Below are positions 29,091 to 64,000 of a stretch of 64,000 nucleotides of DNA, in pieces; the first letter of the stretch is position 1, and each line of letters begins with the position of its first letter. The notes beneath the pieces were generated by a model. The model did no database searches. It was not told where the DNA came from and was given only the letters and a program-made list of their open reading frames with translations. The stretch is taken from NCBI GenBank assembly GCA_008632985.1, contig QPGO01000024.1, positions 573,848-637,847 on the forward strand. The letters run 5' to 3'. The translations under genes were made by a program, and so were the position numbers. The stretch is from Psammoneis japonica. Its lineage: Eukaryota.

Positions 29091-29464
29091 CCAGGTAGGG
29101 GTGACTTAACTGTTATCGGTGCAGCACTCTACACACGCTTTAGGACCTCCCACGGCACTTCCTAACTTCAGTGAACAGAGATTCTTTGTTTTGCATCCAG
29201 GTTTTGCATCCAGCTAAAGGGATATCTAATTTTATACTGCAAAGGGACTAGAATATCCTTTGTGTGTTGTATTCTTGTGCACGAGGAGAGTGCGCTAGTG
29301 CTGCTCTTCCATTTTCTGTTCGTCCTTCCCTAGAAAGACCTTCTCGTTACTTTATGGACACTTCATTCTTTGCCAACGGACTCAATGAAGTCTCCGCTAG
29401 CGAATATGACGTAGGTACGCAGACGGAGAAAAGCTTCGAAAATTCCAAAACCGCTTGCTATAAT

Positions 29465-36200: not shown

Positions 36201-39200
36201 AGTGCTGCTGGCTGCACACTGCCCTTTGTTGTTTGTCATTTGTGCTGGGCCTGTTGTCATTGGAATTTTCACCCAGTCTGACTTTGTCATCACACTGTCT
36301 TTGGATGATCTGCATCATTCATGGTTGGGCATTCTTGCAGATCATGGTCAGATTAACCAGAAGCAATGGACAGACCACACCTTGGACAGAGATGAGTGCA
36401 GATTTCTTTTGAGCTGCTTCCTCTTCTCACTCTTTCTTGCTGTCACTCTTGATGCCACAGCCACCAGTTTGCAGAGAGCTTGCACACTTGTTGATCTTGC
36501 TGTCACTGCCATGTTGCTTGAGTTGCCAGCAGAGCTCCAGGAGAACACTTCCTGGGTGTGGGGGTTGTCTGAAAACTTGCTCTAATCACAACATGAGCAG
36601 CTCATGTCAGGGTCAAAGTGAGTGTGTGAGGCATCAACTGTGGCAACCACTTTTGTTTGATGTGCTTCAAGTGATCTGAGTCTTTCAGCTCATCATCTGC
36701 CAAGACAATGAAGTGAGCCATTGGCGCTGTTGTTGGAGCATGCACCCTGAAAAAAGCTTTCTGCACAATTGTTGCAATGCTTGCAACATGATCAATGGGG
36801 TCATGTGTCAATGGCAAGATGTGTTCCTTGATGAGGCACTTCCAAAGAAGGTGCACAACATTGTCCTTGCTTTGGGTGTGGCCAGTGTCATGAAAAAGTT
36901 GCAAGTTGAGAGTCTTGCCACTGCCATCAACTTGCAAGATGATGTGTCCATGGACTTGTGGGCCTCTGGATGACTGTTGTGCACATGAAACTTGATGTTG
37001 AGAGTGCAACAAGGGCATCAACAGCATCCTTTCCTCTGACAATTGGTGCCATGGTTGAGGTGTTCAAAAAAGTTTGATGTGCACACACAGAACAGCGTGC
37101 ACAATTCAACAACTTTTGCTTGCCCTGGCTCTGAGACTTTGGATTTTGATGGTCAGGCCTGGTGTCATCCTGGCTGCTTCTGGTTCTTTGCAACCACCCA
37201 GGAGCATGTGCTTGTTGGTGCTTGTGCAAGATGCCAACCAGAGATTGCAGGCCAATCTCAACAAATTTGAGCAACTGATTTCTCAAATGATGACAAGGCA
37301 AGTGTTTGGGAGAATCTCAGCAACACACACCACTGTTCTGTTTTCAAACCAATCATTTTGTTTCACCTGCATGTCAGCTTCAGTTGGGCAAAAATGGAAG
37401 CAAGTTCTGCAAGGCAAGAAAATGAGCAAGAGCCATCATGAAAGCTGCCAACCAAGACAAAGAAAGGGCACGCTGATTGTCTGTTCCATCTCTCATGGCA
37501 TCACTGCACATCTCCAGCAACAGAGCATTGTCCCCACTGCTCACATCAAACAGAATTAGCATGTCAAGCATGGGCAGGAAGCAATGAGTGATGAACCAAA
37601 ATCTGGATTGAGTGTCCACAAAACACCTCTAACTTGCAGGGGACCAATTGAAAGTTGTTGATCACAGAACATGCCAAGGATCAGTCTCCCAATTTGATGA
37701 CTTTGGAGCAGGTTGCAAACAAGGTGTGCTGGTCAGTGGAGCATGAGTTTTTGTGTGTCTTGACATCTTCTTTTTGTTCATGTCATCTCCAGCAGGTGGA
37801 AAGTCAGGAAGCAGATCCAAAATTTGTTGCACCAACTTCTTGCCTTGAGTCTTGTCTTCTGTTTGCTGCAAAATCTTTTCTGCACTGGCATCCCTCCCTT
37901 TGTTGTTTGACCATCCATGTTTTGTTTGCTGGAGCAGCAATCTTGTTGAGCATGTCATCCTTTGGAGTGTTTGGCTCTTGAGAACAGGGTGGACTTCTCA
38001 AAGGGATTTTTTGGACTGCTTCTTTTTTGCCATTGATTCTTCCTTTTGTGCCAAATGCACTTTCTCTTGACCTTCCCTCTTGGTCAAGTCACCATGACAC
38101 TGTGGCACAAGCCATGCAAAAATTCCTGCATCTGTTCCTTTTGCACCTTCTTCCCATTAAGAATTTTTCAATCCTTGTTCACTCCAATGTGCACAAAAGG
38201 AACAATTGAGTTGCATGCAGTGCGCACCTCCTGCTTGTTGTGACTGACAAAAAGGGACACAACATCTCTTGACTTTGTCGTGGAATGGTGCATCGGGAGT
38301 GACTTGTTTCAATGGGTGGCTGACACACTGAATCCAGTGATGTGATCATTTGACTGCAAGTTGTGTGCCCTAAATTGGCTCACAAGATGGCAAAGCAGTT
38401 GAATGCCACCATGAAAGCACAAAAATTTGCAAGCATGTCAACTCCATTGTTGTTGCAATTGATGAATTTAGATCATTTTTTGTTGCTTGCAGCACAAAAA
38501 GTTTCTTTGTCACTTGGTTTGGACAAGATGGACCGTGCACTGCTGCGTCACTTCAACACTGTTTTTGCATGTTGCATTTTGCTTGTTCAACAAACAGATG
38601 TGTGAGGAATTCTGTTAGACACCACTTTTCAGCATTGTTTCATTGGGTTGTTGGTGTGACATGAATCTTGTTGTGCATCATTGTGCCCCTGTTTTTCTTC
38701 ACAATGTTGCAATTTCATGAAAACAACAGGTGTGTTGATGGACGCAGCTGACCCAAGCACACAACAGCATGCAAAGCATTTGGTGCATTGTTTTTGTCCT
38801 CATCAATTTCACACAATGCACTGCATCATTGACCCTTTGCTTCTGTCACTTGGAACAAACAACCAAAAAACCAACAACACAAGGTGCACTGTCGTCAACA
38901 GCAAAAAAATCTACATTGACATGCTGCCACCATGTTGAATGCAGAGCATTGTGTTGCCACCCCACCATCACCCAGCAGGTGGTCCTCCACATTGTCATCC
39001 CATGCATGTTCTCTTTTTTGGGTTCTTTCCACAGCGATTCTGTCATTTGTTCATTTTGTTGCTTCTTTCCTTTGCCGTCAGCTGATTTTTTGTTTTGCTG
39101 TCAAACAACGGATCACACCTTTTCTCAAGCAGTTTTCTGCCAGTCAGGGCATCTTCAACAATGGCCATTGCAAGCAGCTTGCTCATCTTTTCATCACAAG

Positions 39201-41299
39201 TGAGTTGGCTTGGGGTGGAAAAACCTGTGCTCACTCTCAATCAGGGACAGTCATGCCATTGACCCGGACAACATCAATCAGCACAAAAGAATTTTTGGGC
39301 AATTCGGCCCAGCTCCTCTTCTTGTTTTTCAGGCATTTCACCAACTGTCACCATCATTTGCAGGACAAAGTGTGCTTCTGTCATGTGCATGATGTTTGAA
39401 ACCATCATGCCAAATGCACCACAAGGTGACCACCCAGCATGTCAACTGCAAAATGTGCATTGTCAAAAACACACTGACCAAATGCTTGCACCTCTGAGCA
39501 TTTTGGCATGTGTTTTCATTTGTCATGTGAGAGCAGAAGAAAGATTGGTTTCTGCCTTTTTTTGCTGTCACTGTCTGGTGTTTTCCATTGCTTTGCACAT
39601 TGACACCAGCGGCTGTTGTCTTCATCAGGGTCTAGACCCACAATGCAGAGAGAGAGAGCAACTTGATGAAAGCATGATTGACAAACTCACAAGCACAAAG
39701 AGGATCATCCAGCAGGCATGAAAGGACTGGGCAGTTTTGCAAAATGGCATTTCCATCTTGCTTTGGCTCACAACTCACAACTCTGCCACAAATCCTTTCT
39801 TGATGAAGAATGTCACCCAAAAGGAAACTGCAATGTGTTGTGGCTCTCACAAACCCATGATCATTTCCAATTGTTGCACAAGCAATGGGTGGATTGGATT
39901 GGCAGTGAAGCAGTCTGCAAAGTGCAGTCTTTACAATGCAGCAATGATTGGCAATGACAATGCAGCCAGTCTTGTTTGTCTGCATTTGGAATGAAACCAA
40001 ATGGGTGCCAATGACAACAACAGCAGCAGCAAGCACCTTCTCAAATTCTGGCAAGTGAGTGCATGAGTGGCTGCTCCATCTCAAGCAGATTGACAGCATT
40101 GACACTGGTCTTGTCAGAATGATCAACAAGGAGGGCATGAAAATTGGGTGCCATTGCCTGAGCATTGGAGCCACTCTCTCCATCCCCCATGTTTTGACTT
40201 TGAGGCAAGAATTGCCAGCCACCTTGCATTCTTGCTTGGAAGCGAATGTCACACCACTGCCAATGGGAGCATCAGAATGTCCCTGGGAGGAGGCACATGT
40301 GGAAACCACATGTCATCTGGATTTGCCAGCTGCTTTGAAAGATCACAAAAGACTGGCTCTGTGAAAAGATCCCACAGAGTTTCAGCAAAGCCACAGACTG
40401 GGAATGGTGTGGGAAACAACAGTGTTTGGGTCCATTCTTCTGTTGGTTGATGGAGTTGCTGTGCTCCATCACAGCAGTCACAGTGCAGGGAAGAGGGACA
40501 TTGCAAAAAGCTCAAGAAGCTGCTTTGTGGCCATGGCAGCAGCAGCGGAATGCTTTGTCAAATCCAATTGCTTCTTGGCATGCTTTTGGCAAACTGTTCT
40601 TGCTGCTTTGTCTGTGAAGTTGTTGTCACAACAGGCCAATGACAAAGATGCAAAAGGCAAGCCACAGACATGATGCTGGGTGAACACACAGGGGGGACAT
40701 CAAAGTGCTCATTAGAGGCAAGATTGCGTGCCAGCCCCAGTGGGTTCTTGGGATCAAAGGAGGTGTTGGCAACCAAGTCATTGTTGGGAGAAGGAGGAGA
40801 TGTTGCAGCTGCCCAACAAGAAATTGCAGCAGGGCCCCAGGCACTGTCAAGAGAGGCAGCAGCACTGAGCTCAGGAACACCAAGAACAGCACTTTTGTTG
40901 CCAAGGGCAGAAATGCCATTGTCCACAAACAACACAAATTGACAAGCATTCACAGTGGCTGCCTTGGCAGTGGCAGAAAAATGTCCAGAGCATCAGACAG
41001 ATGAAGGGCATGCACTGTTTGCAACTGCAGTGTTGCTGTCAGCAGTGTCATTGTCCAAATGTGGTGGAAGGAGGTGGAGATCTGGATTTGAGATTTGAGT
41101 GGACCTTGGGAGGGAAGGTTTGGGTGCGTTGTTGCCAAAACCAAGCACAGATGGCTCAGCATCAAATTTGCAAATGGCAACATCTTCAGAAGAGGAAAAG
41201 AAACAGCAGCTGGTGTTGTAAAGAAGCACCCTCCTTCTCACTGCAGGGTGCACACTTCCAGAGATGCTGGGCAATGTTGGAAAGGAAGTCAACTCACCG

Positions 41300-44200
41300 C
41301 CAGTGGGGACATCAGGGTCAATCAGAAAAAGACCCAACAGATGAGACAGAGACAGCATGATGGGGAAGAAAAAAAGCAACCAAAATCCAACCAGACAAAG
41401 ATGCTGCATCTGTTCTTGAAGATGTCTGTGTTCCAAGAGAAGGCAGGGAAGCAGAAGTGGTGCAGCAACACAAAAGGTGGTGCTCCATGTGATTTTCCAA
41501 GTCAAAACCAAGTTGTCCAACTGGTCAGACCAAGTCCAACATCACAGTTGGTGGCAAGATGACAAGGACAAAGACCATGTTTGGAACCAAACCCAGAACA
41601 TTTGTGCTGGGAACACACAAGACCTTCCAACTGCACAATTGCCTGTGTGGCCTGACAGAGAAAGTTGCACACACTGATCAGGTGACAAAACAGCACAATG
41701 CAAATGTGAATCACACCACAGGGCACAAAATGGATGGTGCAGGGCCAGAGCTGGAGAATGCCGGCCAACTGTCAAACACGTTGGAAGAAACTTGTGACTT
41801 GAGCAGGCACCTGACCTTTGCAGAAAAGGCATTTTCTGACAGAGAACAAGCTGCCTGGGAGGGCATGGACACTTGGAACTCTTGCAGATCCAAATGCATG
41901 TGAGCCAGAGGGCTTGGATCTAAGAATGAGTCCATGGTTGCAGGGTGTCCACTGAAGCTGGCAACAGCTGAAAGGCACGCACAATTGCAGTTGGAAGGAT
42001 CACCACCACATGATGTTCCATTGTGATGGTTCCACCAAGGGCCGTGTTCGCTGTTGTTGCTGATTGCCATGACCAATCTGACAAGTGCTTGACCAATTGA
42101 GATGTGTGTGCTCAAAAGGATTGAACAAAGAAGACAAGACAAAGAAAGCAGCTGCCAAGAGATGGGCAAAGAGGAGAGGATCTTGATGAAAGATGACATT
42201 TTCTTGCACCATGCCCACGCATCAGCATCTGCCATCTGCAATGTTGGTGCTTCGTGCTTGCTGGGAAGACTGCAACAAACAATCTGTGGCTTGTGCAGAT
42301 GAGGCTGAGTGCAAGATGCTGTCAAAGAGCTGGTCCTGATCAGTCAGTCTCAATTCAGGCAAGCTTTCAATGACACTTCTGGGTCAATCATGATTGGATT
42401 GGCTGCATCCAAGAATGCGCTGAAAAAGCTTCAGGAGCCGGGGCAGTGCAGGGATCAACATGCACAACAGAACAGGATCCACATGCTGCTTGGGTTGTGA
42501 GGGAAGCAAGTGCAGAGCAAGTGGGACCCACCCTTGCAATTGGAGGCAAACAAGGGAAGGTGTGGGACTTTGCTGCAAAGTGCACAGCTGTTGACCTTGA
42601 GAGTGCTGACCAGACTGTTGGTTGGAACTGATTTTGCCCCATTGAGGTGGCAGTGCTGTGACAAGACAACAAGCCACATTCCATCATCATTTTGTCTGGG
42701 CAATGTTCCACTGCAAACACAAACAGCAGCAGCTCCATCCACCAATGCTGAAGAAAATGAGATGGGACATCGTCAAAATCAAACAATTCATGAATGCCAT
42801 TGCAGTCAGCAAGCCAAGTGAACTCTCAACCAAACAATGACTTCTTCTGCTTGGGGAACACCCAGCGGCCAACTGATGTCTTGCCTGCACAAGAGTGGCA
42901 TGATTTTTCTGATGCAGTGGTGGCACGCACAACAAGAAGACTGTTGGTCTCAGAGGAATGCCCCCGGCCATTGCAGATCAAAAAAACATGGACCACCTTG
43001 AATTTCAGCAAGCTCAGCTGCTTCAGCCAAGCAAACATTGGGATTGGCCTGGAGCAGGGGGCTGCTCCCACTGCATCTTTGCTCCAATTGGTCTTGACAT
43101 GGAATTGCCAGCTGCAATCTGGTCAAGCTAAAACCAGACCCAACAAAACATCCTGCCAGAATCCAGCAAAGAATGCTCATTTGACATCTGGTTCCATGGC
43201 ACCAGGTCCTGGTTGTTTTGCTTGAAGCTGTCTAAAAGGAGTCAATCTCACTTCAAATCATTCTTTCCAGTTTTGGCAAAAACTGAATGCAGCAATCAAC
43301 ATGCAAAGGCTGCCCCTTGTTTTGGGCAGAGGCAAGGATTGGAGTGCATCAAGCTTGGTGTGAGCTGGAGAGCTCCCATCCTCACAGATGTCAAGCCCTG
43401 CAAATTCCACTGTTGGAGACAACCACTTGCATTTCTTGAGCTTGGTGGTGATGAAGTGGTGCTGGAGCACCTTGAGAACAACCTCAAAGTGTGGGAATGG
43501 CCATTTTGTCAAGGGCACAAAATGTGTGCAGTCATCATGATGACTTTGGAGCTGCAAGGTTGAATGACAAAGCAGACACCAATGCCATCACAATCAAGAT
43601 CTGGGTGCTTGTCAAAGAATTGAGCTTCTTGTTCTTTTTGCAATGCGGCCATCATGGCAACAAAAATTGCACGTGCATTGACAAAGCCCATTGGCATCAC
43701 ATTCCAGCAGCTTTTGCCTTTGGGAGCAAAAAACGCCATCTTTGCTCTTGGTGCCTTCTCAAGCAACACTTGCCAATGACCACAGTCAAGATCAAAACTG
43801 AGAAAAACTTGGCTTGTGGCAGGATGTCTTGCACCACATTGTCAAACCAAGGTGTGTGGAAGTTGAAAGGATGAGTGACCTGATTCAACCTGTGGCAAGA
43901 GACACAAAGGCACCAAATGCATTGGTGCCATGGCATGTTTTCTTGATGTGGTTTTGCAGCCAGAATGACAAGGGCTCCCCAAGGGCTCTCGGCATCACAA
44001 AAAATCAAATCATTGTTTTCAAGATGATCCAAGAGCTTTGCCATGGTGCAAGACTTGTGGGGGGCACATTGAGGCAGCTTGCAACACACTGGAACTACAT
44101 CCCTGGTGTCAATCTGACACAAGAAACCTGGATGTGTTTTCTCAGCCCTTCTTCATGAAATGCAGCCACAATCTTTGAACATGACTTCCATGCCAACTGG

Positions 44201-47200
44201 CAGGTCCAGGCAATCACCCAGCTCCATGTGATGTGATGGCAACTTTGGGCACCAGATCTTCTCAGTGGTGCGATCAGCACCTTGTAAATTTGGTGATGGC
44301 TTGGATGGAAACAAAGGTTTGAGCACATCAGTTGCTGGACTGGTTTGATCAGCAACAAGGACAGATGAAGATGCAGATGTGACAAACTTGCAATGTGATC
44401 TTGTGGAATCAATGAGAAATGCAGACGGCATGGCCCACTGCCACAGCAGGCCTTGGAATGTCAGCATTGCACTTGCACATGGATTTGACAAGCAAAACAA
44501 AGATTCCAAGGTCAGACCAGAGAACAACTCTCATTCATGCAGCTCAATCCCAGGGACAAAGTTGTGCTCTGGATTTGGTGCAAGCAGGTCCTCACGTTGA
44601 GCCAGCATGAAGAACTCCAACAAATTGTCAAAGACAGCACATGCTTGGTTGACCAAAAGTTGCCATTCAGCTGCCAGTGCCACAGAGACCTTGACTTCAA
44701 CCTGAGCTTGTTCAATGGCTTCAGATGCAGGTTTCTACCATGTCAAGTCAAGCAGGCAGGGAAGAAGCATGAGCACCTTGTGAGCCTGCACCTCCCATCA
44801 AAGGCACTTGGTCTGCTTGATGCAGGATTTGACAACAAACAGGGAATGCATGACCAAGGCATTGGCACAACAGCATGTCTTCTGACTCACTGTGCATGAA
44901 GAGAATGCTGTTGGTGGCTTGCACGAGTGGCAAACTTAAAATTGTGTTGGCAGATGCTGATTTAACTGACAAACCAAATGAAGCCATCACATTCTGGGCA
45001 CTCACCTTGAAAGGGGTTTTGTGGGCAATGACTGTGACAACTCAGGTCACATCACCATTTTCATTGACACCTCCAACAGAAAACTCAAGGTTGTCCATGT
45101 CCTTGATGTGCTTGAAGGTTTCTACAATGTCAGGATTTGCCTTGCAAATGCTCTTGTGGTGCACTGGACATCCCAGGCTGAGTCCAGTGCAAGTGTCAAC
45201 CATGGCGGTGTTCAGGGTGGCTTGGTGCTTGGTGCCAACTGGGAAACAAATGTGAGCACAACTCAGCTTGCTCTCCTGATCAAATCCTGGGCACTTTTGC
45301 TGATGCTTCCACAACTTGAAAATCAATCAGCAATGGGAAACAAATGAAATCAGCGCTGCCTGCACCTTGTCACAACGTGTCACCTGGTGGTTGTGGGGGA
45401 CAAACCAGAGCAGTGTGACCCCATTTGTCATGCAACAGCAACAAGCAGCACACCGTTTGAGTTGCATTTGAAGTTGATGGGTTGGCAATGGACACAACAA
45501 GATCTGCCATCTGTTTGGAGGGGTGTCCATCTTTCTCCCATGAGGAATGAAAAAACATGCAGTGCTGCTGGAAGCTTGTGCAGCATTGTCTAAAGATCCA
45601 TCTTGTGACAGAGCGCTGAGAGGAGGAATGCCCCACGGATGTTTGGCTGGAGTCAGAGAGGAAGCATTTGCTTGTGCTGCCAAATTGCCATGATGAGGAC
45701 AACTGTGCCAACAATGAAAACACTCCTTGTGGAATGACTTGTGACCTGTGCATCCCCAGCACTCAACAAGAGGAAATGATGTGATGGGGCAGCTCATTGC
45801 ATGGCATCCTCTGCTGCACTGAGGAGCACAGACGTGAGCATGGAAATTTGACACAGATCATCTGCATTGTCAATGTTGTCCATGCCCTTGCTTTGAACTT
45901 GTGTTTGGCCACTCTGCACTTGACATGTGACAGGGTCCTTGGGATGACAATCATGTTCTGAGTTTGGGACAGTGGCAAAGGCTTGGGCACCTGCATCAAT
46001 CAGATGGGAGCAAGAGCCTTGTGCACTGGAACGCAATGCAATGCCCCAAGCTCTGTTCACCTCTCAGCGCACTTGCAAAATCTGGCACTCTTGAGTGTTG
46101 GTCTTGTTGGGTGGTCTTGCAGGATCACTGAACAGAGGATCAGCCACTTCTCCTTGATCCATTGAGTTCTGATCCAAAGCAGAGTGGAAAACTTGTGGCA
46201 GGTCAAGAGTGAGCTGGCAATCTGGCACAACATGCTGACCCGCTTTCAGAAAACAAGGCAGAAATCTTCTGTGTTGCAGTGGTGTGGCTGTCCATCCACC
46301 ATTGCAGTTTGTTCTAAGTGCAAAACAGTGTCCACAATCTGAGCATCCATGACAGTGGCTCCACTGAGGAACTCCACTTTAGTGCGCTCTCACAAGAGAC
46401 GCAGTTTGCAGTCAAAGAATTGCTCACTTGAAACAAAGCTTGGCCAGCAGGATGGTTCAGAATGCCCAGTGTCGGAAAGATGCTGCCAAGATGGGCCACA
46501 CAAGCATTCAATGTGGCTTGAGGATCACACAAAACTGCTGCTGTCAATGCTGGAAGCAGCAGCTCTGATCCATCATCTAGATGAGTGGGGTCGTTTATGA
46601 CAGGCCAGGTGTTGGGAGCTGAGCGGCCACTGGGAATGTTTTGGCACTCAAGCAAGCAGTGCTGAGGACATCAGGGGCCCAATTGAAAGCCAGAGCGGCA
46701 TCAATTGTGAGGTCAAAAGTGCAGAACTTTGCATTGTGGCAAACATTCTGGACAAATGGGGGAGGAGGTCCCTGCCGGATTGGGGGTTGCTGGGAAGTTG
46801 AGTGCGCCACCCCTTTCTGTGCAGATCATTGGGCTGCTGAACAGAAGCATCCCAGCTGGGGCTCCTGGCACAGTGACAGGAACATCCAGCCCAGCTGCAT
46901 TGTCACAAAGGCATCATCTGAGTGCGCTGTTGCCTCACCAGACAAGTGATTGATGGAAAGCATGAACTCAGAACATTGTGTTTGGTGGTGAGTGCAGGTG
47001 TGCATGGAGTTGCATTGATGCTGCTGACCATCAAACAACAGGAGTGCTATCTCCACAGAGTTCTCTGGCACTGCAGTGCAAAGATTCGCAAGTTTCTGTG
47101 GCAGGTTGAAGGTGCACAAGCCCCGCTGCACCTGTTCTTGGGTGATGACGGCGAGGGGGTCATTGCGACAACGGCCACCTCCCCTCCCTGCACAAAGTTG

Positions 47201-49497: not shown

Positions 49498-49543
49498 NNN
49501 NNNNNNNNNNNNNNNNNNNNNNNNNNNNNNNNNNNNNNNNNNN
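49498..49543. other. Assembly gap (46 N)
   Basis: Run of N. Confidence 1.
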
Positions 49544-52573: not shown

Positions 52574-55440
52574 ATGGATGATGTAAGCGAAAAGGGTGTC
52601 GTCGTATTATGTGAAAGAAACGGAGTGTTTTTCGACTTTTGACTCGGCAATAACCGCCGCTTAGAACGTTCAACTCCGCCCAGCAGGCGTCTGACGTTCA
52701 GCGCGGTACTGTTTCTACGCTGGAAAACGATGTCGCATTGCGCTCGTGTGATGTTCATCTCACCGTTGCTTCTCTCTCTTTACTTATAGAACGACGTTTG
52801 TCCCCTCTGTTGCGAAGAACTTGATATTTCCGATCGTCAGTTTTTCCCGTGCAAATGCGGCTATCAGGTGTGTATGTGGTGCTGGCACAAGATTCGTGAG
52901 CAAGAATCGGGGTTGTGCCCCGCTTGTCGCAATCCTTATGGAGACGACCCGCACGAGTTTAGCGCTGTGGATATGGAGGAAGTGCTCAAGGAAAACAAGA
53001 AGAAGGCTGCCGCAGAGAAACGAGAGCGAGAGAGACTTCGGGCGGAAGAAGGAGACGGGGGCGATGGAGCTATGGGAGCTGGGCCCATGGCGCTTCCAAA
53101 GGATCGAAACCAACTTGCAAACATGAGAGTCATTCGCAGGAACTTGGTGTACGCGGTGGGAATGCCTCCGGCTATTGCGACGGAAGAAATTTTGAGGAGG
53201 CCGGAGTATATTGGTCAGTATGGAAAGATTTCAAAGATCGTGATCAATCGGAGCAACGTTACCGCCACGGATCCGAGGAGGGCGAGTGCTTCGGCATATA
53301 TTACGTTTGTTCACAAGGTGAGTAGAGTGGAACCTGAGAAAGACGTTCGATTAGAATCGATTTCCCTCAACTGTGCTATTCGTTACACACTATCCAATAG
53401 GAGGATACGCTGGCTTGCATTCTTGCTCTGGATGGCTTTTATATTGACGGGCGGAACATTCGTGCTTCGTACGGGACGTCGAAATACTGCTCTGCATTTA
53501 TCAAAAATGTTCGTTGTAACAACCCGGAATGTACCTATTTGCATTGCATGGGAGAAGCGGAAGACACCTTTACCAAGCAGGAGATACAGGCGGGTTATGT
53601 CACGAGTGGTAGGGATGTATTGGCTCGGCAGCAGCAAATTGTGGCACAGGCTCTCAGCGCAGCTGCGGGAGGAAGTGGATCGGCTGGAGAAACCAGGCGC
53701 AAGGTGGGTGGTGGTGGACCGTCAGGAACTGGTAAGCCGTGTTCCAACCCGCAGTTCCCACCTCCATCCTATGACGAAGCAATCAAACCGGCTCACACAA
53801 GAAATAGCTCTGCTGGAAGCTTTGCGGCTGTGCCTCCACCCACACTCACCGGCACATCAAAGATTGGAAGATCCGTATCCTTGGGTGCTGGAACGACGTT
53901 GATTGGTGGAACGACGACGTCTGTACCAAAGGGCACAATTAGCGGGGCGAGTGCTGCTATGGCGACTAGAAGTAAAAGTGTCGTGGCCGGGGCGAGCGGC
54001 GTGGAGCCACCCTTGGTTGGTCCTGCCGGAGCTAGTAACACCGCTACAGCCGCAGCTGTGGTAGCTGCTGGACGCAGCTCTGTCACTGCAGCATCAGAAG
54101 GAACGGGTTCGCGTTCTACACTTACGGCTTTGACTCCTCTGAAGCGATCGTCTACCCTCCCATCCAAGAGCGCGGCGATTGGATTGAAAGCATCGGCAAG
54201 TGGCGAGCTTGATAGCGAGGCTTTGCAGATTCATGCAAACATGCCTTTGCCAAAGGGTCTGTCGGCCGAACAGCGTGCCGCTCTGATGGAGCAACGCCGT
54301 GATACCACTACGAACTTGCCAAGGCAGCAACGTGACACGTCGCTCAAGCTTTCTGCGCTCCGTAGCAACGGAAGCAATGGGCAGAAACAAAATGGTGGTG
54401 TACTGGGAACAGCTCCTACCTCACCCTCGTCTTCTATTTCTTCTTCTGGGGCCGTCAGCAACAAGATTCCTCCCACTAGTCACGATGTTGGCACTATTGG
54501 TGGAACTGCGATTGGTGCGCCCCCTGGTCCCACCGGGACGTTTGGTGACACGCTCAGTGGGCTCAGTGGTATTGGGGGGCAACCTATTGGCGGAGATGTT
54601 GGTACAGCTAGAAGTAGTAGTCTCGGAGGTGAAATTTATACTGGGCGTTTGCCAACGACTGCACCAGGCAACGGCGGTATGTTTGGTAGCAGCAGCACTC
54701 GTTCGGATGGACTATGGGGCGGAGAGCCGCCGGTTGAGAGTGGCTTATCGTCCTCTGGATTGGGTGGTCGCAGCTCCACGCCTGGTGTGATTGGTGGTGG
54801 CACTAAAGGTGTGGGTGCGATTGGATCACACGGAGTTATTGGAGGAGGCACTGTAATTGGCGGTTCTCGCTACAGCTCGGGTAGTTCGGCGCTCGCTTCA
54901 ATGCTTGGCATTAGTTTGCCCACTGGAGCGGACTCTCTTCGAGAATCAAGCTCACTCTGGGAATCCTCAACGCCCGCCCCAACTCCAATTATCGGGAACA
55001 GCGGACCTGGTGTTATTGGTGGATCCAGTGTGATTGGGTCATCAAAGAGCAGTGGTAACCCCATTGGCGGATATGCGATTGGAGGAGGACTGAGCTCCGG
55101 CGGACGCCCACCCTCAAAACCTGTTGGTGGCGGTGGAAGCAGCAACAGTAGCGACATTGCTCTTTTGCAGAGCATTCTACCTGGGGTTCACATTACAAGC
55201 GGCAACGCCCAGCAGCCTGCGGCTCCCACCAATACGAGTGGCTTTGGAGCCGTTGGCGGTTCTAGCTGGGATGGCGGAGCGAACAGCAGCTTTGCTCAAG
55301 GAAGCAACAACAATACTTGGGGAGCTCAAGGCAGTTTGCAGCAACAAGCTATGCAGCAACAAGCTCCTCCGGTTGGAGCTCCAGGCCTTGGGAGCTCCCA
55401 ACAAAAACAGAAACAGAATTCGAGCAACAATATTTGGTAA
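52574..55440 (+). CDS. NOT4: CCR4-NOT E3 ligase NOT4/CNOT4; exons 52574-52582, 52790-53317, 53401-55440
   Basis: C4C4 RING CPLCCEELD..FFPCKCGYQVCMWCW..CPACR; RRM RVIRRNLVY..GQYGKISKIVIN; RASYGTSKYC..C.N.EC.YLH; GT-AG introns in frame. Confidence 0.95.
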
Positions 55441-56531
55441 ACATTGTGTGATGGAAGGAATGGAATGGATTTATGGCAATGGATAGTGCAATGGAAAGGT
55501 TTGAGGAAGAAACTGGTCGGAGATAATGGTAATGGAATGGTTTGCGGCGATACACATTTTACATATGATTGCTCGGATATACAAGATTGGAGGAATGAAT
55601 GACTTGCGGCGTGGAAGAGTGAGCTTGCCGATGCTTGCTTGGCTCTTTTGGTGTACGTAGGCCCGCATTGTAGTGCTACTGGTAGATTGATGGAAGTCGG
55701 AGAAGGCAGTATAGCAATAAGGCAGCTAACAGTGATCATTCTAAAACTCTCGCGTTTTTCCATCCGGCGTTTGTTGCCTCTGTTGATCACCATTGGAGTG
55801 AACGTCCCACTCAATCTTGCGCGCAATCGGTACTGCATTTAAGAGGTAGCTGAGGCGGCATATCGGACAGTACGGCTGTAGTTCAAAGCAACTTTTCCGT
55901 CCTTCAAGATGAAACAGGGAGCAGCAATTTGGCAGTCGGGTGACCAGTAAGGTGTCACCGTCATGAAGACCTTGCCTGCAATCCACTTTGGCGGTGGATG
56001 CAGCGACATTCTTGGTTCCTGATGGCTGAGATAAATTTCGTGCGACACCATTCAAATCTTGAGGTGGGACGATGCTGGACACTTAGCGACAGAGTCGAAA
56101 ATCGACTTCTTTGTTCAGAGAAAGGAAGAGATGCAAAGTTATTTCCTACCCTAATTAACGTTGAGTATTCATGCACCATATGAGTGCCTTTGACAGCGAC
56201 ACTGGAACAGTGGGCTATATCGCTAGGCGGCAAAGATAACGGAGGTACGACTAAGACAGAAGCGCATAGCCTGTAAGCTTGATAAGAAGAAGGCGCGAGA
56301 CCGAACACTCATCTGACCTGCACAGTCTACCTGAGGAGTTTCGTCAACCAATCACGAGAGTCCAACCAAAGGTGCCTTCAGAAAATGACATGGAAACGTC
56401 ACTTCCAGATTTGACCAAAACAGAGCTTAAAATTACGGCAATTTCGAAGACAGGTCGGTGGAGATAGTATTGTCAAATAACGACTCTTCCCGCTTTGGCA
56501 AGGACAGCAGATAGCGCGGCTTTACCTGTGG

Positions 56532-57206
56532 TCACGACGGCGGTTTTTTGTCGTTTGGAATTTTCATGACAAGGTTAAAATGAAGCCCGTGCTTTGGTAC
56601 AGACACACGTTGTAACGGACGAAGTAAAAAGGCGTCCTGGTCGTTGGCCTGTTCAAATTCGGCGTTGTTGTAATGCCACTTTCCCTCTGATACAGCCTCG
56701 GACACTTCCGCGCAACGCGTGCTGTCAGCTGCGTTGTCCTTGTCAATGACCATAATTCCCAGTTTGAAAAACACATCATGTCCCCGCAGGATACCTAAAT
56801 CGCGTGATCCGAGACTATGAATTTGTAATACCAAGTCTCGCATTGCATGCTTTAACTCGTTCAGTTGCTCATCTGTGTCGACCTCATTGATAACGGGAGA
56901 TGCAATGACTTGCAGAACGAATTGTTCCAACACACGTTCTTTGTCAAGTATTTTCAGAACGACTTGGTTCGACACGTTTGACACAATGGAGGGTTTAATC
57001 ACTTGAAGTGACTTGGAAACATACTTGCAAACCTGAACGTTCCGATTTTTGTGGCAATGAATCCCTAGAAATGGGAAGCTCACAAATGACTCTTCCGGGT
57101 ATACTTGTCGCACAAATAGCAATTGATGAATGAATGCTTCTAACGTAGCACCCAACAATGTGGACCATTGACGTTGCCCTCGTGTTTCCGCCGCAGACAT
57201 GGCCAT
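56532..57206 (-). CDS. REV7: HORMA-domain protein, REV7/MAD2L2-like
   Basis: LEAFIHQLLFVRQVYPEESF, VLEQFVL; 224 aa. Confidence 0.7.
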   Translation of the reverse strand: MAMSAAETRGQRQWSTLLGATLEAFIHQLLFVRQVYPEESFVSFPFLGIHCHKNRNVQVCKYVSKSLQVIKPSIVSNVSNQVVLKILDKERVLEQFVLQVIASPVINEVDTDEQLNELKHAMRDLVLQIHSLGSRDLGILRGHDVFFKLGIMVIDKDNAADSTRCAEVSEAVSEGKWHYNNAEFEQANDQDAFLLRPLQRVSVPKHGLHFNLVMKIPNDKKPPS

Positions 57207-57487
57207 GATGCCATGATTGTGTTTTATTGTGTATGTGCGCGTGGGCAGTGAGCAACGCCAAAGTGCTGACCGTTGCTGGAGGGAAGTTTTGCTTTTTCAA
57301 TTTGTGCGGTTCGCGTCGCAGTTCGCGTGTTCGCAATTTATAAAATCACTACGGACATGAGCATTTCAAATCACATCATGTTTGATTTCTTTTCGATGCC
57401 CGCCCACTCTACTCTCCAGTAGAGAGAGCACTCGCTCTCGATCTATGTATCTCAACTACTGTAACTCGTTGCTTTTGATGGCCAATC

Positions 57488-58930
57488 ATGCAGCCCTTTC
57501 CTGCCTTATTGAAAGATCTTTTTCTTTTTGGACTGACGGCGGTAGCATCTGTGGTGTTGTCAACCAGAAGAGCAAGAAACGCCAATGATGACGCCCTTCT
57601 TCAAAAGTCGCTTCGAGAGGGGACATCCTTGAATGCTGCTGAACTTGTCTGCACCGTGGACGCCAACAATGTTCCTACTCCAAAGGGTCATCCGCGAGCG
57701 CAAGTCCGGTTGGAAAACTTGTGGCATCGTGCCACTTATATTGTCGTGCGGCACGAAGAGGAATCCATTCAAGAAGAAGACGAAGAGTATCTTTTAGTGC
57801 AGAAGCGATCGAAACTCAAGGATTACTGTCCACGCAAATTAGATCCAGCTCCAGGTGGTGTGGTGGGATTTGGCGAATCTTATCATGAAAATGCTGTACG
57901 GGAAATGCAAGAAGAAATGGATATTGATGTCGAGTCTTCAAACAATTCGCTACGGCGGCTCTTTGCATTCAAGTACACCGATGACCGTGTTCGCTGTTGG
58001 GGGGAGTTGTTCGAAGGTGTTTACCGCGGGCCGCTGAACCGAATCAGAATGCAAGAAGAAGAGGTTGAAGAGGTTATGCGTTTGTCTGTGAAGGAAGTCC
58101 AGGAGATGGTCAAGTCGAATCCCGATGCATGGATGCCAGATGGATTGCATGCATTGCGTCTATATCTACAATACCGCCAGGATGCTTCTTTAAAGAGACG
58201 GTTGCTCAAGGGTTACAGCAGTGGAAACTTGGACGCGTACTCCTTGCGCCCAAAACCCGAGGCAATATTCTTTGACTGCGACGATTGCCTTTACTTTGAT
58301 GGTTGGAAGGTTGCCAACCAGCTTACAGCAAAGATTGACGAGTGGTGCGTCAAGCGTGGCTTGCCCGAAGGAGAAGCATACGAATTGTATAAGAGACACG
58401 GAACTGCACTTCGAGGTCTTTTGGCAGAAGGACACATGGAACATTGTGACGAGGCAATCGATGCGTATCTTGAGGACGTGCACGATTTACCGATTTCCGA
58501 AATGTTATCTCGTGATGAGCAACTCCGACAGATTATTCAGAGGATTGATCCATCGATCCCAAAATACATCTTTACGGCGAGCGTGCACCATCACGCTGAA
58601 CGTTGTCTAGAAGCATTGGGTATTGCCGATTTATTTGATGGTATTATTGATGTGAAGGCATGTGATTTGCATACGAAACACTCGAGAGAGGCCTTTGATG
58701 CTGCGATGAAAGTTGCTGGTGTCAGCCATGCCGAATCTTGCATCTTTCTTGATGACTCAATACGAAACATTCAAGCGGCGAGGGATGTAGGGTGGCGGAG
58801 CATATTAGTGGGTCGTGTTGGACGTGACTGTGGAAAACCCGTTTCTACTCAACATGCCGAGCATGAGATCGAGCGAATTCATTCCATGCCTGACGTTCTA
58901 CCCGAGCTATTTGATCACGAATCCAGTTAG
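57488..58930 (+). CDS. Nudix hydrolase (YfcD/IDI-like) fused to a HAD pyrimidine 5'-nucleotidase (SDT1-like)
   Basis: Nudix box GGVVGFGESYHENAVREMQEEMDI; HAD motifs FFDCDDCLY, IFTAS, FLDDSIRNIQAARDVGW. Confidence 0.88.
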   Translation: MQPFPALLKDLFLFGLTAVASVVLSTRRARNANDDALLQKSLREGTSLNAAELVCTVDANNVPTPKGHPRAQVRLENLWHRATYIVVRHEEESIQEEDEEYLLVQKRSKLKDYCPRKLDPAPGGVVGFGESYHENAVREMQEEMDIDVESSNNSLRRLFAFKYTDDRVRCWGELFEGVYRGPLNRIRMQEEEVEEVMRLSVKEVQEMVKSNPDAWMPDGLHALRLYLQYRQDASLKRRLLKGYSSGNLDAYSLRPKPEAIFFDCDDCLYFDGWKVANQLTAKIDEWCVKRGLPEGEAYELYKRHGTALRGLLAEGHMEHCDEAIDAYLEDVHDLPISEMLSRDEQLRQIIQRIDPSIPKYIFTASVHHHAERCLEALGIADLFDGIIDVKACDLHTKHSREAFDAAMKVAGVSHAESCIFLDDSIRNIQAARDVGWRSILVGRVGRDCGKPVSTQHAEHEIERIHSMPDVLPELFDHESS

Positions 58931-59419
58931 AAACAGTGGAAGACGCATCCAAAACACAATACTACAGTTTTGGGATTGGCAGCTGGTAATTTCTCCACTT
59001 GAAACCCTCTGCAAATTTGCATCGACTCGGAAGCTTGGTTTCTTGGTCTGAGTGAGCGAGCAGGACCATCGTCTAAAAGTAGTTCAGGCTACATTCTAGA
59101 ATTCAGAATGCTTTACCTTACTGTACGGAGCTGTGTTGGTTCGCAACTTCTGCTGGCTACAGACAGTAGCCATCTATTGAATGGTGCATCGGTGCTCGTA
59201 GCCGTCCTCTTTGTGCTAGACTCTGCGACAGTGCTGCAGGGCCTAGAGTGGACAAGCAAGCAGCGCAGCCGAACTCCACTCTCACCTGTGGTGCTACGTA
59301 GATGCTGTAAAGCACCTTTCGATTCTTTAAAAACTCCCTCTAACTCGCGATTCAATTGCATGCTAGCACAACTTGAAGAGGGAGCAGTGAGTCAGTCTAT
59401 TTTACATTGTTAGAGAATC

Positions 59420-61320
59420 TAGAAGGGGGGCTTGCAAACACATCTTGTGGACTTCACTCCTTGCTGGGCTGCAGCACATGGCAAAGCAACAACAGCTTGG
59501 CTGCAGAGGAGTTCTCTGGGGGCATGGCAATTTTGGTGGTGGCACACCCTTTTACTCTGTGTGCCTGGCAGGCAACAAAAAAATTGAGTGTGATGCAAAA
59601 ACGCTTCTGTGAAAATTGTGAGCCACCAGCTCATTCCAGAAAAAGTGGGGTCATGCAAATTGGGGGTCGTGCCAAGTTCCCATTTGCTTGAATTTTGCAT
59701 CACATCAAAACCACTGCTGCTCACATTGTGGATTGCACAAGTCAGGCCACAATGCCGCATCTTCCACAAGCAATGTCATCATGTCGTGCCACACTGCACC
59801 CAGCTGGAGGTCAGCCAACATGTGGATGTGCTGTGTGCACTGATGGTCTGGGTGTTCCTCTGAAAAGTGCCTTGGTCAAGAGCCACGTCCTCCTTGGATT
59901 GTGCTTCCCAGGTGCACCCAGGCAGTGCTGTGCTGCTGCACACAAGAGGGGGCCAGTGCGCTGCATTGCCACATTGCCAGCAGGCACATGCTGTGCTTGT
60001 GCACAGGAAACTGCGCACCCTCATCAGTCAGGAATCTCCCTCATTGTCAGTGTTGGAGTCACACACGTGCAGCTTGGGGCTTCCATTGCATGTGCACGCC
60101 ACTCTCTCCACCAGGAAATGTGGATGTTTGCAGCACACTTGCTGAAAACCAGCCAACAATTGGGTTGTGCTGACCTGGTTGCAAGTCTGGCCAAAGAATC
60201 TGAACAAGATTTTGCCCCTCTGCTGAGCTCACTTGGGTCCAGCCAGAACATCCAAAAGCAAAAGTGCTTTGTTTCACAAATGTGCACAACTCTCATTGCA
60301 GCTTGGGCAGGGTGCTCTTCTTTGAACTTGGGAGATGCCAAAGCTGCCATTCCACATGCTCTCACCAAACACTTGGGCCATTGTTCTGCAACTGCGTGCT
60401 TTCCACAGGCTTGCAGTCAACAGCAAACTTTCTCCATGTTTCCCAGGGGATCACATCTCCTCCAGGTTCTTTGTGTGCTTCAAAGCAGTGGGGTCTCTGC
60501 TCATGACAAGCTCTGGTGCAGACCGCAGCAGGCACAACTCTGGCACAGACCACAGCAGGCACAATGGAGGCAATTGTTGTGGTGAGAGAAGGGGAGAGAA
60601 TCATTGTGGTGAGAGAAGGGGAGGGGGGGGGGGGGGCTTGTGTTTCTCACCATCAGCACGCTGCTTGCTTGCAGACTTCTTTCTCCTCATCTGCTCTGCC
60701 ACAACATCTCTTTTCCTTCTCTTTGTGGTCTTTTCAAACTGCTGCTCCCTTGCTGGCCTTTTGCCACACTTCATGGCCCATTGCCACAATCTCATCTCAT
60801 TGTTGCACACCCTTGGCTGGAGAGTGAGCTTGAAGCTCAGCTCCTTGTCCTCCATGACAAACTTTCTTGTGCACAAAAGTGGATCTCTCGTGCTGGGCAC
60901 TTTGTGTCAGCTGCTGTTTGAGAACTTCTCTCTGGTCACACGGTGCCACATTCCAGCGCGTTTGTCACACAACAACACTTCCGTCATTTTTGGTGCTGGT
61001 TTCTCTGCTGGCTGTTGTGCCCGATGGCCAAGGCATGAGGGGCAGTGGCTGGAATGAAGGGGGGGGAGGGCAGCCCAGCTCTGAAGCTGTGCAGTCTTCC
61101 ACTGACCTGCCCCCCCCCCCCCCCACCTGAGACATCTTGATTGTGTGCACCCGCTGACCTCCTCTTCCTTTGCAGACAAGAATGGAAAATGAAGGCCTTG
61201 TCTGACAACAACCGCCCAACCTGTCACCTGTCATTCCCGTGTTGCTGTCGTTGTCAACAAGCACGAATTTTTTGTGTTTTTCATGTTCAATCTAGAAAGG
61301 CGGTTTTTCACAAAGTGTTG
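59420..61320. mobile_element. TpA/CpG-depleted block; decayed repeat of unidentified family with short internal duplications
   Basis: No TpA seen from 59555 to 61292; duplications gaccRcagcaggcacaa x2 (~60521, ~60548) and ttgtggtgagagaaggggag x2 (~60577, ~60604). Confidence 0.55.
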
Positions 61321-61672
61321 TCTTATCCCAATCACTGAAGCACCAGTAGAAAAGCACGCACGTACCGTACGTACCTACAGACAGCACCGTGCGTAGCCTC
61401 AGATACTGTAGTCTAGAAGCTACTAGGGCCCTATCAGTCTGTCCGCTACTTCGATGTTGAAGTTCAACATGCCGATCTCGCTCATCTCAGTTAGTCCACG
61501 GCATGAGTGCGTGCTGAGCGTTGTTTGTTGTTGCTCATTGATAGTTAGTCCATCTCTCATCGTTTGTCAGCCAACGCTTTTAAAATCGAAATCTACCAGC
61601 CGATCTACCCAGCGCCGAAGCAAATCCTACAAACGCGTAGCTATTGATTACGATTATCTCAAGAAGTGCGTA

Positions 61673-62947
61673 ATGAAAGTAATTGTTCCCCGCTTTCCGC
61701 GACCTGTTACCGCTTTCATGTCGGCGGTTGTATTCGTGAGCATGTGTCTCCTGGATTGTCAATTTGCTAGTGCTTGGGGTCCCCACGTAACGAGTCGTGT
61801 TCAGAGGCAAACGACAAGGAATTTTCAGAATCGGGTTAGCCAGGATGCTGTGAACACATCAGCAGACATGGTGGAGGCAGAAGGTGAGAATATCATCCTT
61901 CGAAAGGCCTTGTCCCTGTTGGGTGTTGACGATTCGAGAGCGACAGACTTGAACTGGTCTTTTGTGGATGCTGCATACCTTATTACTTGCCCGAATGCAG
62001 ACCCGGAGTCAGAACGGCTTAATCGTGCAAAACAGATGTTGGCAGGTGTGAATCTACTTGATAGAGTGCAGGTGAAGGAGTTTTGTACCGATGACGAGGA
62101 TCGCATCCGTGGTTGCTACACGTCGCACATTTCTGTCCTAAAAGATGCATTGGTCGACACCGATAGAAGAGCAAAAGGAAATCCTTTCAAACAGATGTTC
62201 AAAGTGTTCGAAGATCAGGAATCTACTACTAGAAGCGATGACGGCGACGAGGACGCAATTGTGCTTGTGTTGGAGGACAACTTTTCTTTGAGTGGAAGCC
62301 TAGACCAATCTCTACTTGCTTCAATTGCTAATTATGCCTCCAGTGGAACCCATTGGGATATGATTCATTTGAGTTACACCCCATACGTTCCTAACCTTGT
62401 TGTTACCAGAACCGAAAATAAGAAAGTGGTGAAACTGAGTTGTGGGTTGGGTTCTGCACTAGGAACCTCCGCATACCTTATCAACACGTCTGCAATTAAA
62501 GCCTTGCTGGAAGAGGACGCAGAACAGGGATACTACGCAGCAATTCCAGATGTCATGGCAGGCCTGTTCCCGGAGACTAGATACTCTGCATTCCCGACGC
62601 CCTTTGTTCGTGCCCATTCAACTAAGAGTTTGGTTAATCCTCAGCTTGACGATATCCGGACGCTTCTGTTCAGGCCAGCCGTGACATCCCAAGTGCAGAA
62701 AATTCTTGCGTTCTCTGGAGTAAGCACCAACAAGCTCCTCCCTATCGCTATTCTGCTGCTGTTGGCAGGAACGGTTCTTTCCGTTCAGAGCAGTTTGACA
62801 GCACTTTTGAGTCTACTGGCAACTGGATCCTACGATGGACCTCTCATATTTCCGGTGCTGAGCACGTTTTTCACTATGTGCTCGCTAGCAATCATAGCCC
62901 AAGGCATTCTTTTGGCACCCAAAGCGCAAGATAACGCTTCTCAATAA
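61673..62947 (+). CDS. Glycosyltransferase family 25-like protein, probably plastid-targeted, with C-terminal TM helices
   Basis: RGCYTSH, VLVLEDN, GTSAYLIN motifs; signal peptide followed by ASA-W; start may be 61718. Confidence 0.65.
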   Translation: MKVIVPRFPRPVTAFMSAVVFVSMCLLDCQFASAWGPHVTSRVQRQTTRNFQNRVSQDAVNTSADMVEAEGENIILRKALSLLGVDDSRATDLNWSFVDAAYLITCPNADPESERLNRAKQMLAGVNLLDRVQVKEFCTDDEDRIRGCYTSHISVLKDALVDTDRRAKGNPFKQMFKVFEDQESTTRSDDGDEDAIVLVLEDNFSLSGSLDQSLLASIANYASSGTHWDMIHLSYTPYVPNLVVTRTENKKVVKLSCGLGSALGTSAYLINTSAIKALLEEDAEQGYYAAIPDVMAGLFPETRYSAFPTPFVRAHSTKSLVNPQLDDIRTLLFRPAVTSQVQKILAFSGVSTNKLLPIAILLLLAGTVLSVQSSLTALLSLLATGSYDGPLIFPVLSTFFTMCSLAIIAQGILLAPKAQDNASQ

Positions 62948-64000
62948 ACGAAATGAGTCGTCACCCTTGTATGCCATTGGCTAAGTCTCTCTGGAGAGCC
63001 CAATGTTTAGGTACAAATTTTTCAATCACCTCCACAAAGCATCCAGTCACGACCTCGACGTCCACAGTATTCTTACTGCATTCATGAGTTCTTATTTCTC
63101 CTACCATACACTCACAATAGAGAGAGCTGCCACTACTGCGAGCGGTTGCATGAGCTAATGTAGCAAAAGTCTATTACTCGCAAAATTTTATAGTTTATTT
63201 CAAGGCTACATTATTTGTTTTAAGTATATTTAAAATACACAGCCTGTTCGACCAAAGAGTAAGGCAATTCTAAATTGAGGCTAGTAGACTTGAGAGGAGG
63301 TACTCTCTAGTAGCTAGCGACTACGAGAGAGACACGAGGAGATAGATAGAATAGAACGTGAGTGGATGGGAAGCGAAAATGCCATACCGGTAGGCAATAC
63401 TGACGTGTGCCATTTAACAATCACTTGAATCTTCAAATTGCAGAATTGATGCTTTAGGGTATATAATAATTTATATGGAAATAAGTATATATGACGTAGC
63501 TAAATGGTATTTTCCTTTGTAGTAAGATGTACTCAGTACATACGTGGCCTTCAGTAGTCGTACTACGTACCATAGGCAGTATGGATTTATCGACGCGACG
63601 GTGGGGGCGAGCGGCGGCGAAATCCCATTCACAAAATCGATCGACATCAGCCAAAAACAAACCCATGCCATGAGACCAAATTCATCTGGACGATGAGCAA
63701 AAGCAATGACAAAGGCAACGATAAGATCGTCGGTAGTAATCCACCTCTTCGAATTCACAAAGATGAGGAGTTATTGCCGGATGAACCGCCCATGAGGTAA
63801 GCAAATTGAAGCCAAAACTGTCCCTACCATAAGGAGAAGCAACCTGCTTTCGAGATTATTGAGTTCGTCGCATCACTCGACTATGGCAACGAATGAGTAT
63901 CATTGTAGGGCCTTGATCATGCAATGAAGATGCTGGGGGGGACGCCATTGCTGACGATCGGTCACGGGAAAGCCACCCAATTGCTTCGTCATGGCAAGCC

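Follow-up and report, generated by a model that had tools for sequence, protein, structure and literature searches.

Results

The TA-free element and its surroundings

The window analysed here is a 64,000-nucleotide stretch of the genome of the diatom Psammoneis japonica (assembly GCA_008632985.1, contig QPGO01000024.1, positions 573,848 to 637,847 of the forward strand). Near its right end lies an element of 1,864 bp (59425-61288; hereafter B4) that contains a single TA, at 59553, and 23 CG (observed/expected ratio, o/e, 0.18), and is enriched in CA (o/e 1.93) and TG (o/e 1.73). B4 is flanked by two copies of a 9-bp direct repeat, AATCTAGAA (59416-59424 and 61289-61297), a putative target-site duplication. 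The TA of the left copy (59420) is intact and is the last before B4; the TA of the right copy (61293) is the first past it. At both ends, the TA edges of B4 thus lie within a few bases of the repeat. From this direct repeat, we read B4 as a dead mobile element that was inserted with a 9-bp target duplication.

The original prediction held that TA is absent from 59555 to 61292, where about 100 would be expected, that scattered CG persist there, and that the loss of TpA is more complete than that of CpG. Exact counts bore this out. The 1,738 bp contain 0 TA (98.0 expected by base composition; o/e 0.00) and 23 CG (118.3 expected; o/e 0.19), together with 193 CA (o/e 1.89) and 200 TG (o/e 1.76). 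At the TA density of the normal parts of the window (42.3 per kb), the probability of finding no TA in 1,738 bp is ~1.2e-32. The interval from the TA at 59553 to the next one at 61293 is, at 1,740 bp, the longest TA-free gap of the window. The depletion extends to the left of 59555, since 59553 is the single TA in a run that begins at 59421. The 2-kb flanks are normal (TA o/e 0.57 and 0.75; CG o/e 0.95 and 0.85).

The same prediction regarded the loss of TpA as no by-product of methylation decay, and this view is sustained. Removal of TA requires A-to-G or T-to-C changes. Deamination of cytosine is unable to remove TA and at CpA creates it, and the edges of TA loss and CG loss differ, as described below. 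TpA loss is therefore not a side effect of cytosine deamination.

Three observations go beyond the original prediction: the lost TA and CG reappear as CA and TG, the TA-free stretch is a discrete insertion, and the same state spans 41.5% of the window (26,586 bp), in five sharp-edged blocks. A 500-bp profile divides the window into two states. In the blocks, TA o/e is 0.01-0.12, CG o/e 0.07-0.36 and CA/TG o/e 1.6-2.0, such that the order of depletion seen in B4 holds block by block; outside them, TA o/e is ~0.6 and CG o/e ~1.0. Besides B4, the blocks are B0 (1-1500), a tandem-repeat block cut by the start of the window (TA o/e 0.12, CG o/e 0.21); B1 (19118-24768; TA o/e 0.036, CG o/e 0.066); B2 (27607-29095), which is poor in TA (o/e 0.041) with partial loss of CG (o/e 0.36); and B3 (30966-47047), a 16-kb block (TA o/e 0.039, CG o/e 0.095). 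A target duplication is clear only at B4; the edges of B1-B3 share at most 6-mers. In an ordinary self-BLAST, the blocks were not repeats of one another. A self-comparison in purine/pyrimidine code, which ignores transitions, brought out the known tandem repeats only; the many alignments at ~75% were noise of the two-letter alphabet.

Conversion of TA and CG to TG and CA

Per kb, TA falls from 42.3 in normal DNA to 2.7 in the blocks and CG from 56.7 to 5.8, and CA rises from 67.9 to 116.9 and TG from 73.2 to 116.4. The losses (TA, 39.6; CG, 50.9; together 90.5) are balanced by the gains (CA, 49.0; TG, 43.2; together 92.2). Simulated random conversion of every TA and CG in the normal DNA of the window gave 117 CA and 123 TG per kb, versus 117 and 116 observed. 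All four changes (TA or CG to TG or CA) are transitions, and the GC content of the blocks is unchanged at about 0.48-0.56. Along the blocks, TG and CA follow each other in random order: the runs test gave z values of -0.07 to -2.2, a range shared by normal DNA. The runs test revealed no clustering of TG and CA by strand and no sign of processive single-strand events. This random interleaving indicates that either strand was hit, site by site.

Tandem repeats in B0 record the order of events. Two 116-bp copies (216-331 and 332-447) differ by 18 mismatches; 12 of these form 6 aligned TG-versus-CA pairs, 3 are TA/CG versus TG/CA, and unrelated differences occur at just 3 of 116 positions (2.6%). 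An aligned TG-versus-CA pair needs two adjacent changes unless both dinucleotides stem from one TA or CG; the ancestral sites were therefore TA or CG. About half of such sites are expected to be discordant, which fits 6 sites in 116 bp. Six TG-versus-CA pairs against three unrelated changes imply that duplication came first and that each site was then resolved independently. Since the conversion of TA and CG is nearly complete at a cost of 3 other changes in 116 positions, the process must be hundreds of times faster than background.

The edge of B0 falls within a second repeat, which has two 346-bp copies (844-1535) and a third, partial copy (1536-1640). TA and CG are kept in the outer part of copy 2 and in the partial copy. 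The unconverted copy carries TA or CG where converted copies read TG or CA, which accounts for 9 of the 34 mismatches between copies 1 and 2. These findings show that the composition of the blocks is of mutational origin: conversion took place in the DNA itself, after duplication of the internal repeats and at random from site to site, and it was targeted, stopping at the edges of elements or blocks and sparing the host genes between them.

The part of B0 from 500 to 800 is richer than the rest of the block in CG (13 in 501-1000) and TA (5). This patch may have been converted only in part, in which case it could preserve intermediate stages.

Edges and sequence contexts of the two losses

The TA edges are sharp, and the CG edges are displaced from them by about 75-200 bp. 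Three intervals within the TA-free zones, each 100-200 bp long (19118-19248, 27607-27706 and 61152-61264), still have the CG density of normal DNA. At the right end of B3, CG is normal from 47087 and TA is sparse until about 47307; to the left of B4, CG is missing for 76 bp outside the element. Because the two sets of edges are shifted and B2 keeps part of its CG, the TA component follows the element and the CG component a slightly different domain.

Survival depended on the neighbouring bases. Expressed as the count in the blocks over that in normal DNA, TA survival is 0/442 for R-TA-Y, 45/265 for Y-TA-R and 23/814 where the context is mixed (chi-square p 3e-23). For CG, the corresponding numbers are 40/1093 in TCG-containing contexts versus 109/947 in others (Fisher p 2.6e-10), and TCGA is nearly extinct (1 in blocks versus 192 in normal DNA). 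Thus, both targets favour a 5′ T, as T-A-Y and T-C-G.

Contents of the blocks

The blocks were searched with Pfam through 269 stop-free open reading frames (ORFs), of which 119 had at least 100 amino acids (aa) and 150 were taken from the 155 of 62-99 aa. RVT_1 was the sole family above its score cut-off among these ORFs (31.6 bits; cut-off 29.6). It matched a Ty3/gypsy-type reverse-transcriptase (RT) relic on the minus strand of B3 (43512-43841; Pfam RVT_1, E 1.7e-7; Ty3 RT 4ol8, E 5.1e-8). The conserved G-Y/F-x-Q of the enzyme now reads GHWQ (codon CAT) and KTAF reads KMAF (codon ATG); a conserved aromatic residue (Y in Ty3, F in the other best match) has become His and a conserved Thr has become Met. 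Because B3 carries this relic, the blocks are, at least in part, dead transposons. No other component of a Ty3/gypsy long terminal repeat (LTR) retrotransposon was found: no family for integrase, protease or RNase H scored above its cut-off in the 269 ORFs, and the window showed no long direct repeats that could be LTRs. The B3 element is too degraded to show the remaining parts. Four weak matches that fell short of the cut-off, PHD_2, MamL-1 and Cys_box among them, were dismissed as chance hits.

B4 has no recognisable protein or RNA family (Pfam, Rfam) and no homologue by search; Rfam gave no match in the whole window. A 297-aa open frame (59692-60585) has no homologue in a set of 882 candidates; since TGA is the only stop left in B4, long frames are to be expected there, and this one was not read as a gene. 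The element also contains 27-bp tandem duplications (60506-60624), one pair of which differs by CG versus CA (GACCGCAG / GACCACAG). A run of 14 G (60623-60636) and a run of 15 C (61110-61124) lie inside B4 in opposite sense, 474 bp apart; a further run of 11 G is found in B3 (32020-32030).

Read-derived contigs

A public DNA run (X1), available as Logan contigs, contains 96% of the sampled words of 56000-63000. Its contigs, at a word depth of ~58, cover 57521-60621 (3.1 kb of flank and block) with 6 other letters and 61110-64000 (2.9 kb) with 1. That the TA-free letters are present in read-derived contigs argues against a base-calling artefact. The depth of X1 doubles across 59342-60008, and several contigs continue into unlike sequence, indicating at least one related copy of B4 elsewhere.

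Differences between X1 and the window amount to ~0.9% in B3 and ~0.1% in genes. Among the 40 of 170 differences that were listed, 27 lay in B3; 16 of the 27 were CG versus TG or CA, in both directions, and 2 involved TA. The remaining CG in B3 are still turning over. An X1 contig also has 45 additional letters at 46089/46090, an indel inside B3.

Ordinary DNA between the blocks

The host genes at 25.0-27.6 kb and elsewhere in the window have normal composition; the ordinary parts encode UTP20, a Na/H exchanger and a NUDIX-HAD protein, among others. Between B1 and B2, a gene of 483 codons (25678-27129, minus strand), with 17 low-copy homologues (best, 33-37% identical), is spared and normal in composition. 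The NUDIX-HAD fusion (57479-58930, plus strand) has >100 homologues of 55-66% identity with the same two-domain layout and is highly conserved across diatoms. Its best relatives are from diatoms (~66% identity), which marks the host as a diatom, and source databases name the homologues pyrimidine 5′-nucleotidase or HAD hydrolase. UTP20, of the small-subunit processome, occupies 1743-11118 on the minus strand as three open frames (7777-11118, 3113-7726 and 1743-3275); the latter two overlap by 163 bp, reflecting short introns or assembly frameshifts. A second run (X2), patchy in cover and apparently transcript-derived, joins across two GT..AG intervals (52582-52790 and 53315-53399), which are introns beside and within the RING (zf-RING_4) gene region at 52790-53902. 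X2 covers none of the blocks, and a third run (X3) covers no part of the window; neither is taken as evidence on expression. A stretch of 46 N (49498-49543), either a gap of the assembly or a withheld stretch, lies in ordinary DNA.

Discussion

The probable cause, in our view, is a deaminase that silencing directs to mobile DNA, where it acts in place on A that follows T and on the C of (T)CG; decay of 5-methylcytosine would add to the loss of CG. Through transitions, a targeted process of this kind would turn the two pyrimidine-purine steps that are self-complementary, TA and CG, into TG or CA, and its net effect would be the irreversible inactivation of mobile DNA. In tRNA, their natural substrate, ADAT2/TadA-type enzymes act on an A that follows U. 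For the TA part, the leading candidate would be a DNA adenine deaminase of this type, acting on A after T and best on T-A-pyrimidine. The CG part, a C-to-T change with T-C-G preference, might be the work of the same dual A/C deaminase, of 5-methylcytosine deamination in silenced regions, or of both.

The closest precedent is Bigelowiella natans, a chlorarachniophyte. In its mutation-accumulation lines, two regions of integrated viral DNA had acquired 231 mutations, of which 230 were A-to-G or T-to-C, all of these on TpA according to the authors (Mettrop et al., bioRxiv 10.64898/2026.01.13.699255). The preprint text describes integrated giant-virus and virophage DNA as the targets and a rate of ~6e-7 per site per generation, a thousand-fold over background and in some lines only. 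It further reports 124 genomic clusters in which TpA is depleted, CpA and TpG are enriched, and reverse-transcriptase and DDE domains are over-represented. Its authors propose an ADAT2-like adenine deaminase and cite Trypanosoma ADAT2 as a deaminase acting on DNA (bioRxiv 10.64898/2026.01.13.699255). The TA part of the conversion in the diatom would be a process of the same kind, here apparently run to saturation.

Several points weigh against this interpretation. The blocks depart from the simulated conversion at GC (+18 per kb in the blocks) and at GA/TC and AT (both lower in the blocks), and the model leaves this unexplained; it reflects either ancestral composition or a further, unrecognised bias. 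The context preferences use host-gene DNA as a stand-in for the ancestral sequence, and the TA found in the blocks may have arisen anew instead of having escaped conversion. CpG outside TCG is also strongly depleted (survival 0.11-0.28); together with the difference between CG and TA edges, this suggests that a distinct process of the methylation type probably accounts for at least some of the lost CG. A transposon origin has been shown for B3; for B4, the basis is the direct repeat. X1 is probably the window's own sample, the library type not being on record. We infer the deaminase, the signal that would aim it and the role of methylation, and the deaminase purely so; ADAT2 is universal, so its presence would prove nothing. 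The adenine preference of amphioxus ADAT2 in E. coli is GAA rather than TA, as far as the consulted part of that report goes (PMC10354150), and CpG goes unmentioned in the B. natans text available (bioRxiv 10.64898/2026.01.13.699255). Finally, none of 79 metagenome loci around homologues of the diatom NUDIX/HAD gene showed the TA/CG-poor state (747 kb, 344 kb of it diatom-like; 0 of the 500-bp windows with TA ≤2 and CG ≤6, versus 198/636 in the window studied here). Since metagenome contigs under-sample repeats, this null says little; the state is not shown to be general in diatoms.

One alternative is that a TET/JBP-type dioxygenase marks the T of TpA in silenced DNA as 5-hydroxymethyluracil (hmU) or 5-formyluracil (fU), which mispairs with G or is poorly repaired and so yields T-to-C, CpG being lost separately via 5-methylcytosine. 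TA-to-CA by T-to-C and TA-to-TG by A-to-G on the other strand are indistinguishable in sequence, and R-T-A equals T-A-Y, so that the context data suit both readings; different edges for the TA and CG zones are as expected of two marks. The hmU of dinoflagellates and base J of trypanosome telomeres are located at TpA. T-oxidising TET2 mutants make hmU and fU, raise the mutation load and prefer methylated DNA, but the available text of that paper gives no T-to-C spectrum (PMC11804724). The literature searched documents no thymine-modifying enzyme or modified base in diatoms, and hmU pairs normally with A, so that near-complete conversion requires an additional step. We therefore consider thymine oxidation unlikely.

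Equally improbable, in our judgement, is editing before integration, by which retroelement RNA or cDNA would be hyper-edited (ADAR/ADAT-like at UA, APOBEC-like at (T)CG) and integrated already free of TA. This would account for element-exact edges: the TA edge coincides with the insertion ends, the target duplication retains its TA, and B3 carries a retroelement RT. However, equal and randomly interleaved TG and CA would need both strands to be edited at every element, and B0 ends within a tandem repeat, the outer copy of which has not been converted. The depletion of CG over 76 bp of flanking DNA to the left of B4, at least, arose in place, and the B. natans spectrum arises in situ in integrated single-copy DNA, according to the preprint text (bioRxiv 10.64898/2026.01.13.699255).

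Passive decay, in which late-replicating, methylated heterochromatin would mutate with a strong local bias over a long time and with no dedicated machinery, has little to recommend it. The blocks do look old and degraded, and the ~0.9% of differences in B3, as against ~0.1% in genes, with CG versus TG/CA prominent among those listed (16/27), would be in keeping with it. Yet the 116-bp copies lost essentially all their TA and CG, 6 sites being discordant, in the time of 3 other changes, so that the two rates differ by a factor in the hundreds. Spontaneous processes are not known to render TpA more mutable than methylated CpG. The B. natans process, as the preprint text describes it, runs ~1000-fold above background and is on in some lines only (bioRxiv 10.64898/2026.01.13.699255).

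An origin from viral or transposon DNA that selection had kept free of TA and CG, in the way that phages avoid restriction sites, or that carries the dinucleotide signature of another organism, would explain a composition sharply unlike that of host DNA and sharp edges, but we hold this to be very improbable. Adjacent tandem copies that read TG versus CA at otherwise identical sites record a two-step divergence from TA or CG rather than an avoidance common to both copies. The conserved aromatic residue of the RT (Tyr in Ty3) has been replaced, a TA-free gene being unable to encode Tyr, and no intact gene is left, with one Pfam family above cut-off in the 269 ORFs.

Nanopore base-callers are known to misread methylated motifs, but short-read chemistry reads 5-methylcytosine, N6-methyladenine and hmU as C, A and T. 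A systematic misreading of modified heterochromatin bases (5-methylcytosine at CpG, modified T or A at TpA) in sequencing or assembly is the least credible explanation, because the X1 contigs, though perhaps from the assembly's own sample and hence not independent, match the window at converted sites (word depth ~58; 6 other letters in 3.1 kb), and because misreading per strand would yield all-TG and all-CA versions, not one fixed random mixture.

In-place conversion by a silencing-directed deaminase therefore remains our preferred explanation. A wider form of it is possible but doubtful: diatoms, and perhaps the whole SAR (stramenopile, alveolate and rhizarian) supergroup, would possess a genome immune system that mirrors the repeat-induced point mutation (RIP) of fungi, is aimed at silenced mobile DNA and erases both self-complementary pyrimidine-purine steps completely, by means of one 5′-T-directed ADAT2/TadA-like deaminase (T-A, T-C-G) or of a heritable palindromic TpA mark maintained like CpG methylation. 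If this were true, algae would hold a natural editor of adenine in double-stranded DNA; such an enzyme, active on duplex genomic DNA, would, if real, be relevant to the base-editing field.

TpA-directed hypermutation of invading DNA has been reported once, in the 2026 preprint on the rhizarian alga, with a mild footprint; the window shows how the end state looks, in a diatom, and our literature search found no paper on joint conversion of TA and CG to TG and CA in diatoms. A process of the B. natans type would be either old within the SAR clade or of more than one origin. To it the present locus adds the coupling of TA loss to CpG loss, a 5′-T rule for both targets (T-A-Y and T-C-G) that is consistent with one dual A/C deaminase, and, at one delimited insertion (B4), TA loss that tracks the element ends with CG loss that tracks a slightly shifted domain. 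Converted DNA escapes transposon annotation (one Pfam family over the cut-off in 269 ORFs) and reverses the RIP indices in common use; it can be found by a simple scan that looks for extended gaps in TA where CA and TG are doubled.

Comparison with known systems

RIP of ascomycetes changes C to T mainly at CpA, makes TpA, destroys CpA and TpG, lowers GC content and depends on RID, a relative of DNMT4. It resembles the present case as an irreversible transition hypermutation that inactivates repeated or mobile DNA within sharp limits. We rejected RIP, however, because TpA is nearly absent here, CpA and TpG are doubled and GC content is unchanged, the opposite dinucleotide outcome. In methylated transposons of vertebrates and plants, deamination of 5-methylcytosine turns CG into TG or CA. 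The same change is seen in the repeats here, and the surviving CG are the main polymorphic sites (16/27 listed). This decay removes no TpA, and a CG o/e of 0.07-0.2 at little background divergence is stronger than usual. As the full cause of the dinucleotide anomaly it was rejected, because it leaves the loss of TA and the 75-200-bp shift between TA and CG edges unexplained. Diatom transposable elements are CpG-methylated, and diatoms carry RID-related DNMT4 enzymes described as of unknown function, according to the text consulted (PMC9998398).

The CG component has a counterpart in the TCG hypermutation of basidiomycetes such as Microbotryum, which is likewise a C-to-T change in transposons in a 5′-T, 3′-G context; the parts of those reports consulted describe no A:T-to-G:C component and no loss of TpA (PMC3318451, PMC5381629). 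Amphioxus BjADAT2 deaminates both A and C in DNA, and its cytidine motif, 5′-TCG-3′, matches the CpG contexts lost most fully here (PMC10354150). Unlike the process postulated for the blocks, its activity is weak and favours hairpin loops, with no link to transposon silencing shown in the text at hand (PMC10354150).

B. natans differs from the diatom in several respects. There, viruses are targeted and TpA is ~1.8-fold depleted in the active region; here, the targets are transposon relics, the host is a stramenopile, and depletion is 10- to 100-fold, essentially saturated. TpA is not the sole target here (CpG o/e 0.07-0.36). CpG is co-depleted with a TCG bias, and TA shows a 3′ pyrimidine preference; the available preprint text is silent on CpG, diatoms and flanking context. 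The mutation rate was measured directly in B. natans, whereas an indirect ratio (TA/CG converted versus 3/116 other changes) was obtained here. As far as the preprint text goes, the two systems agree in the change itself, TpA to TpG or CpA, in its confinement with regional limits to foreign or mobile DNA, and in an algal host of the SAR clade (bioRxiv 10.64898/2026.01.13.699255).

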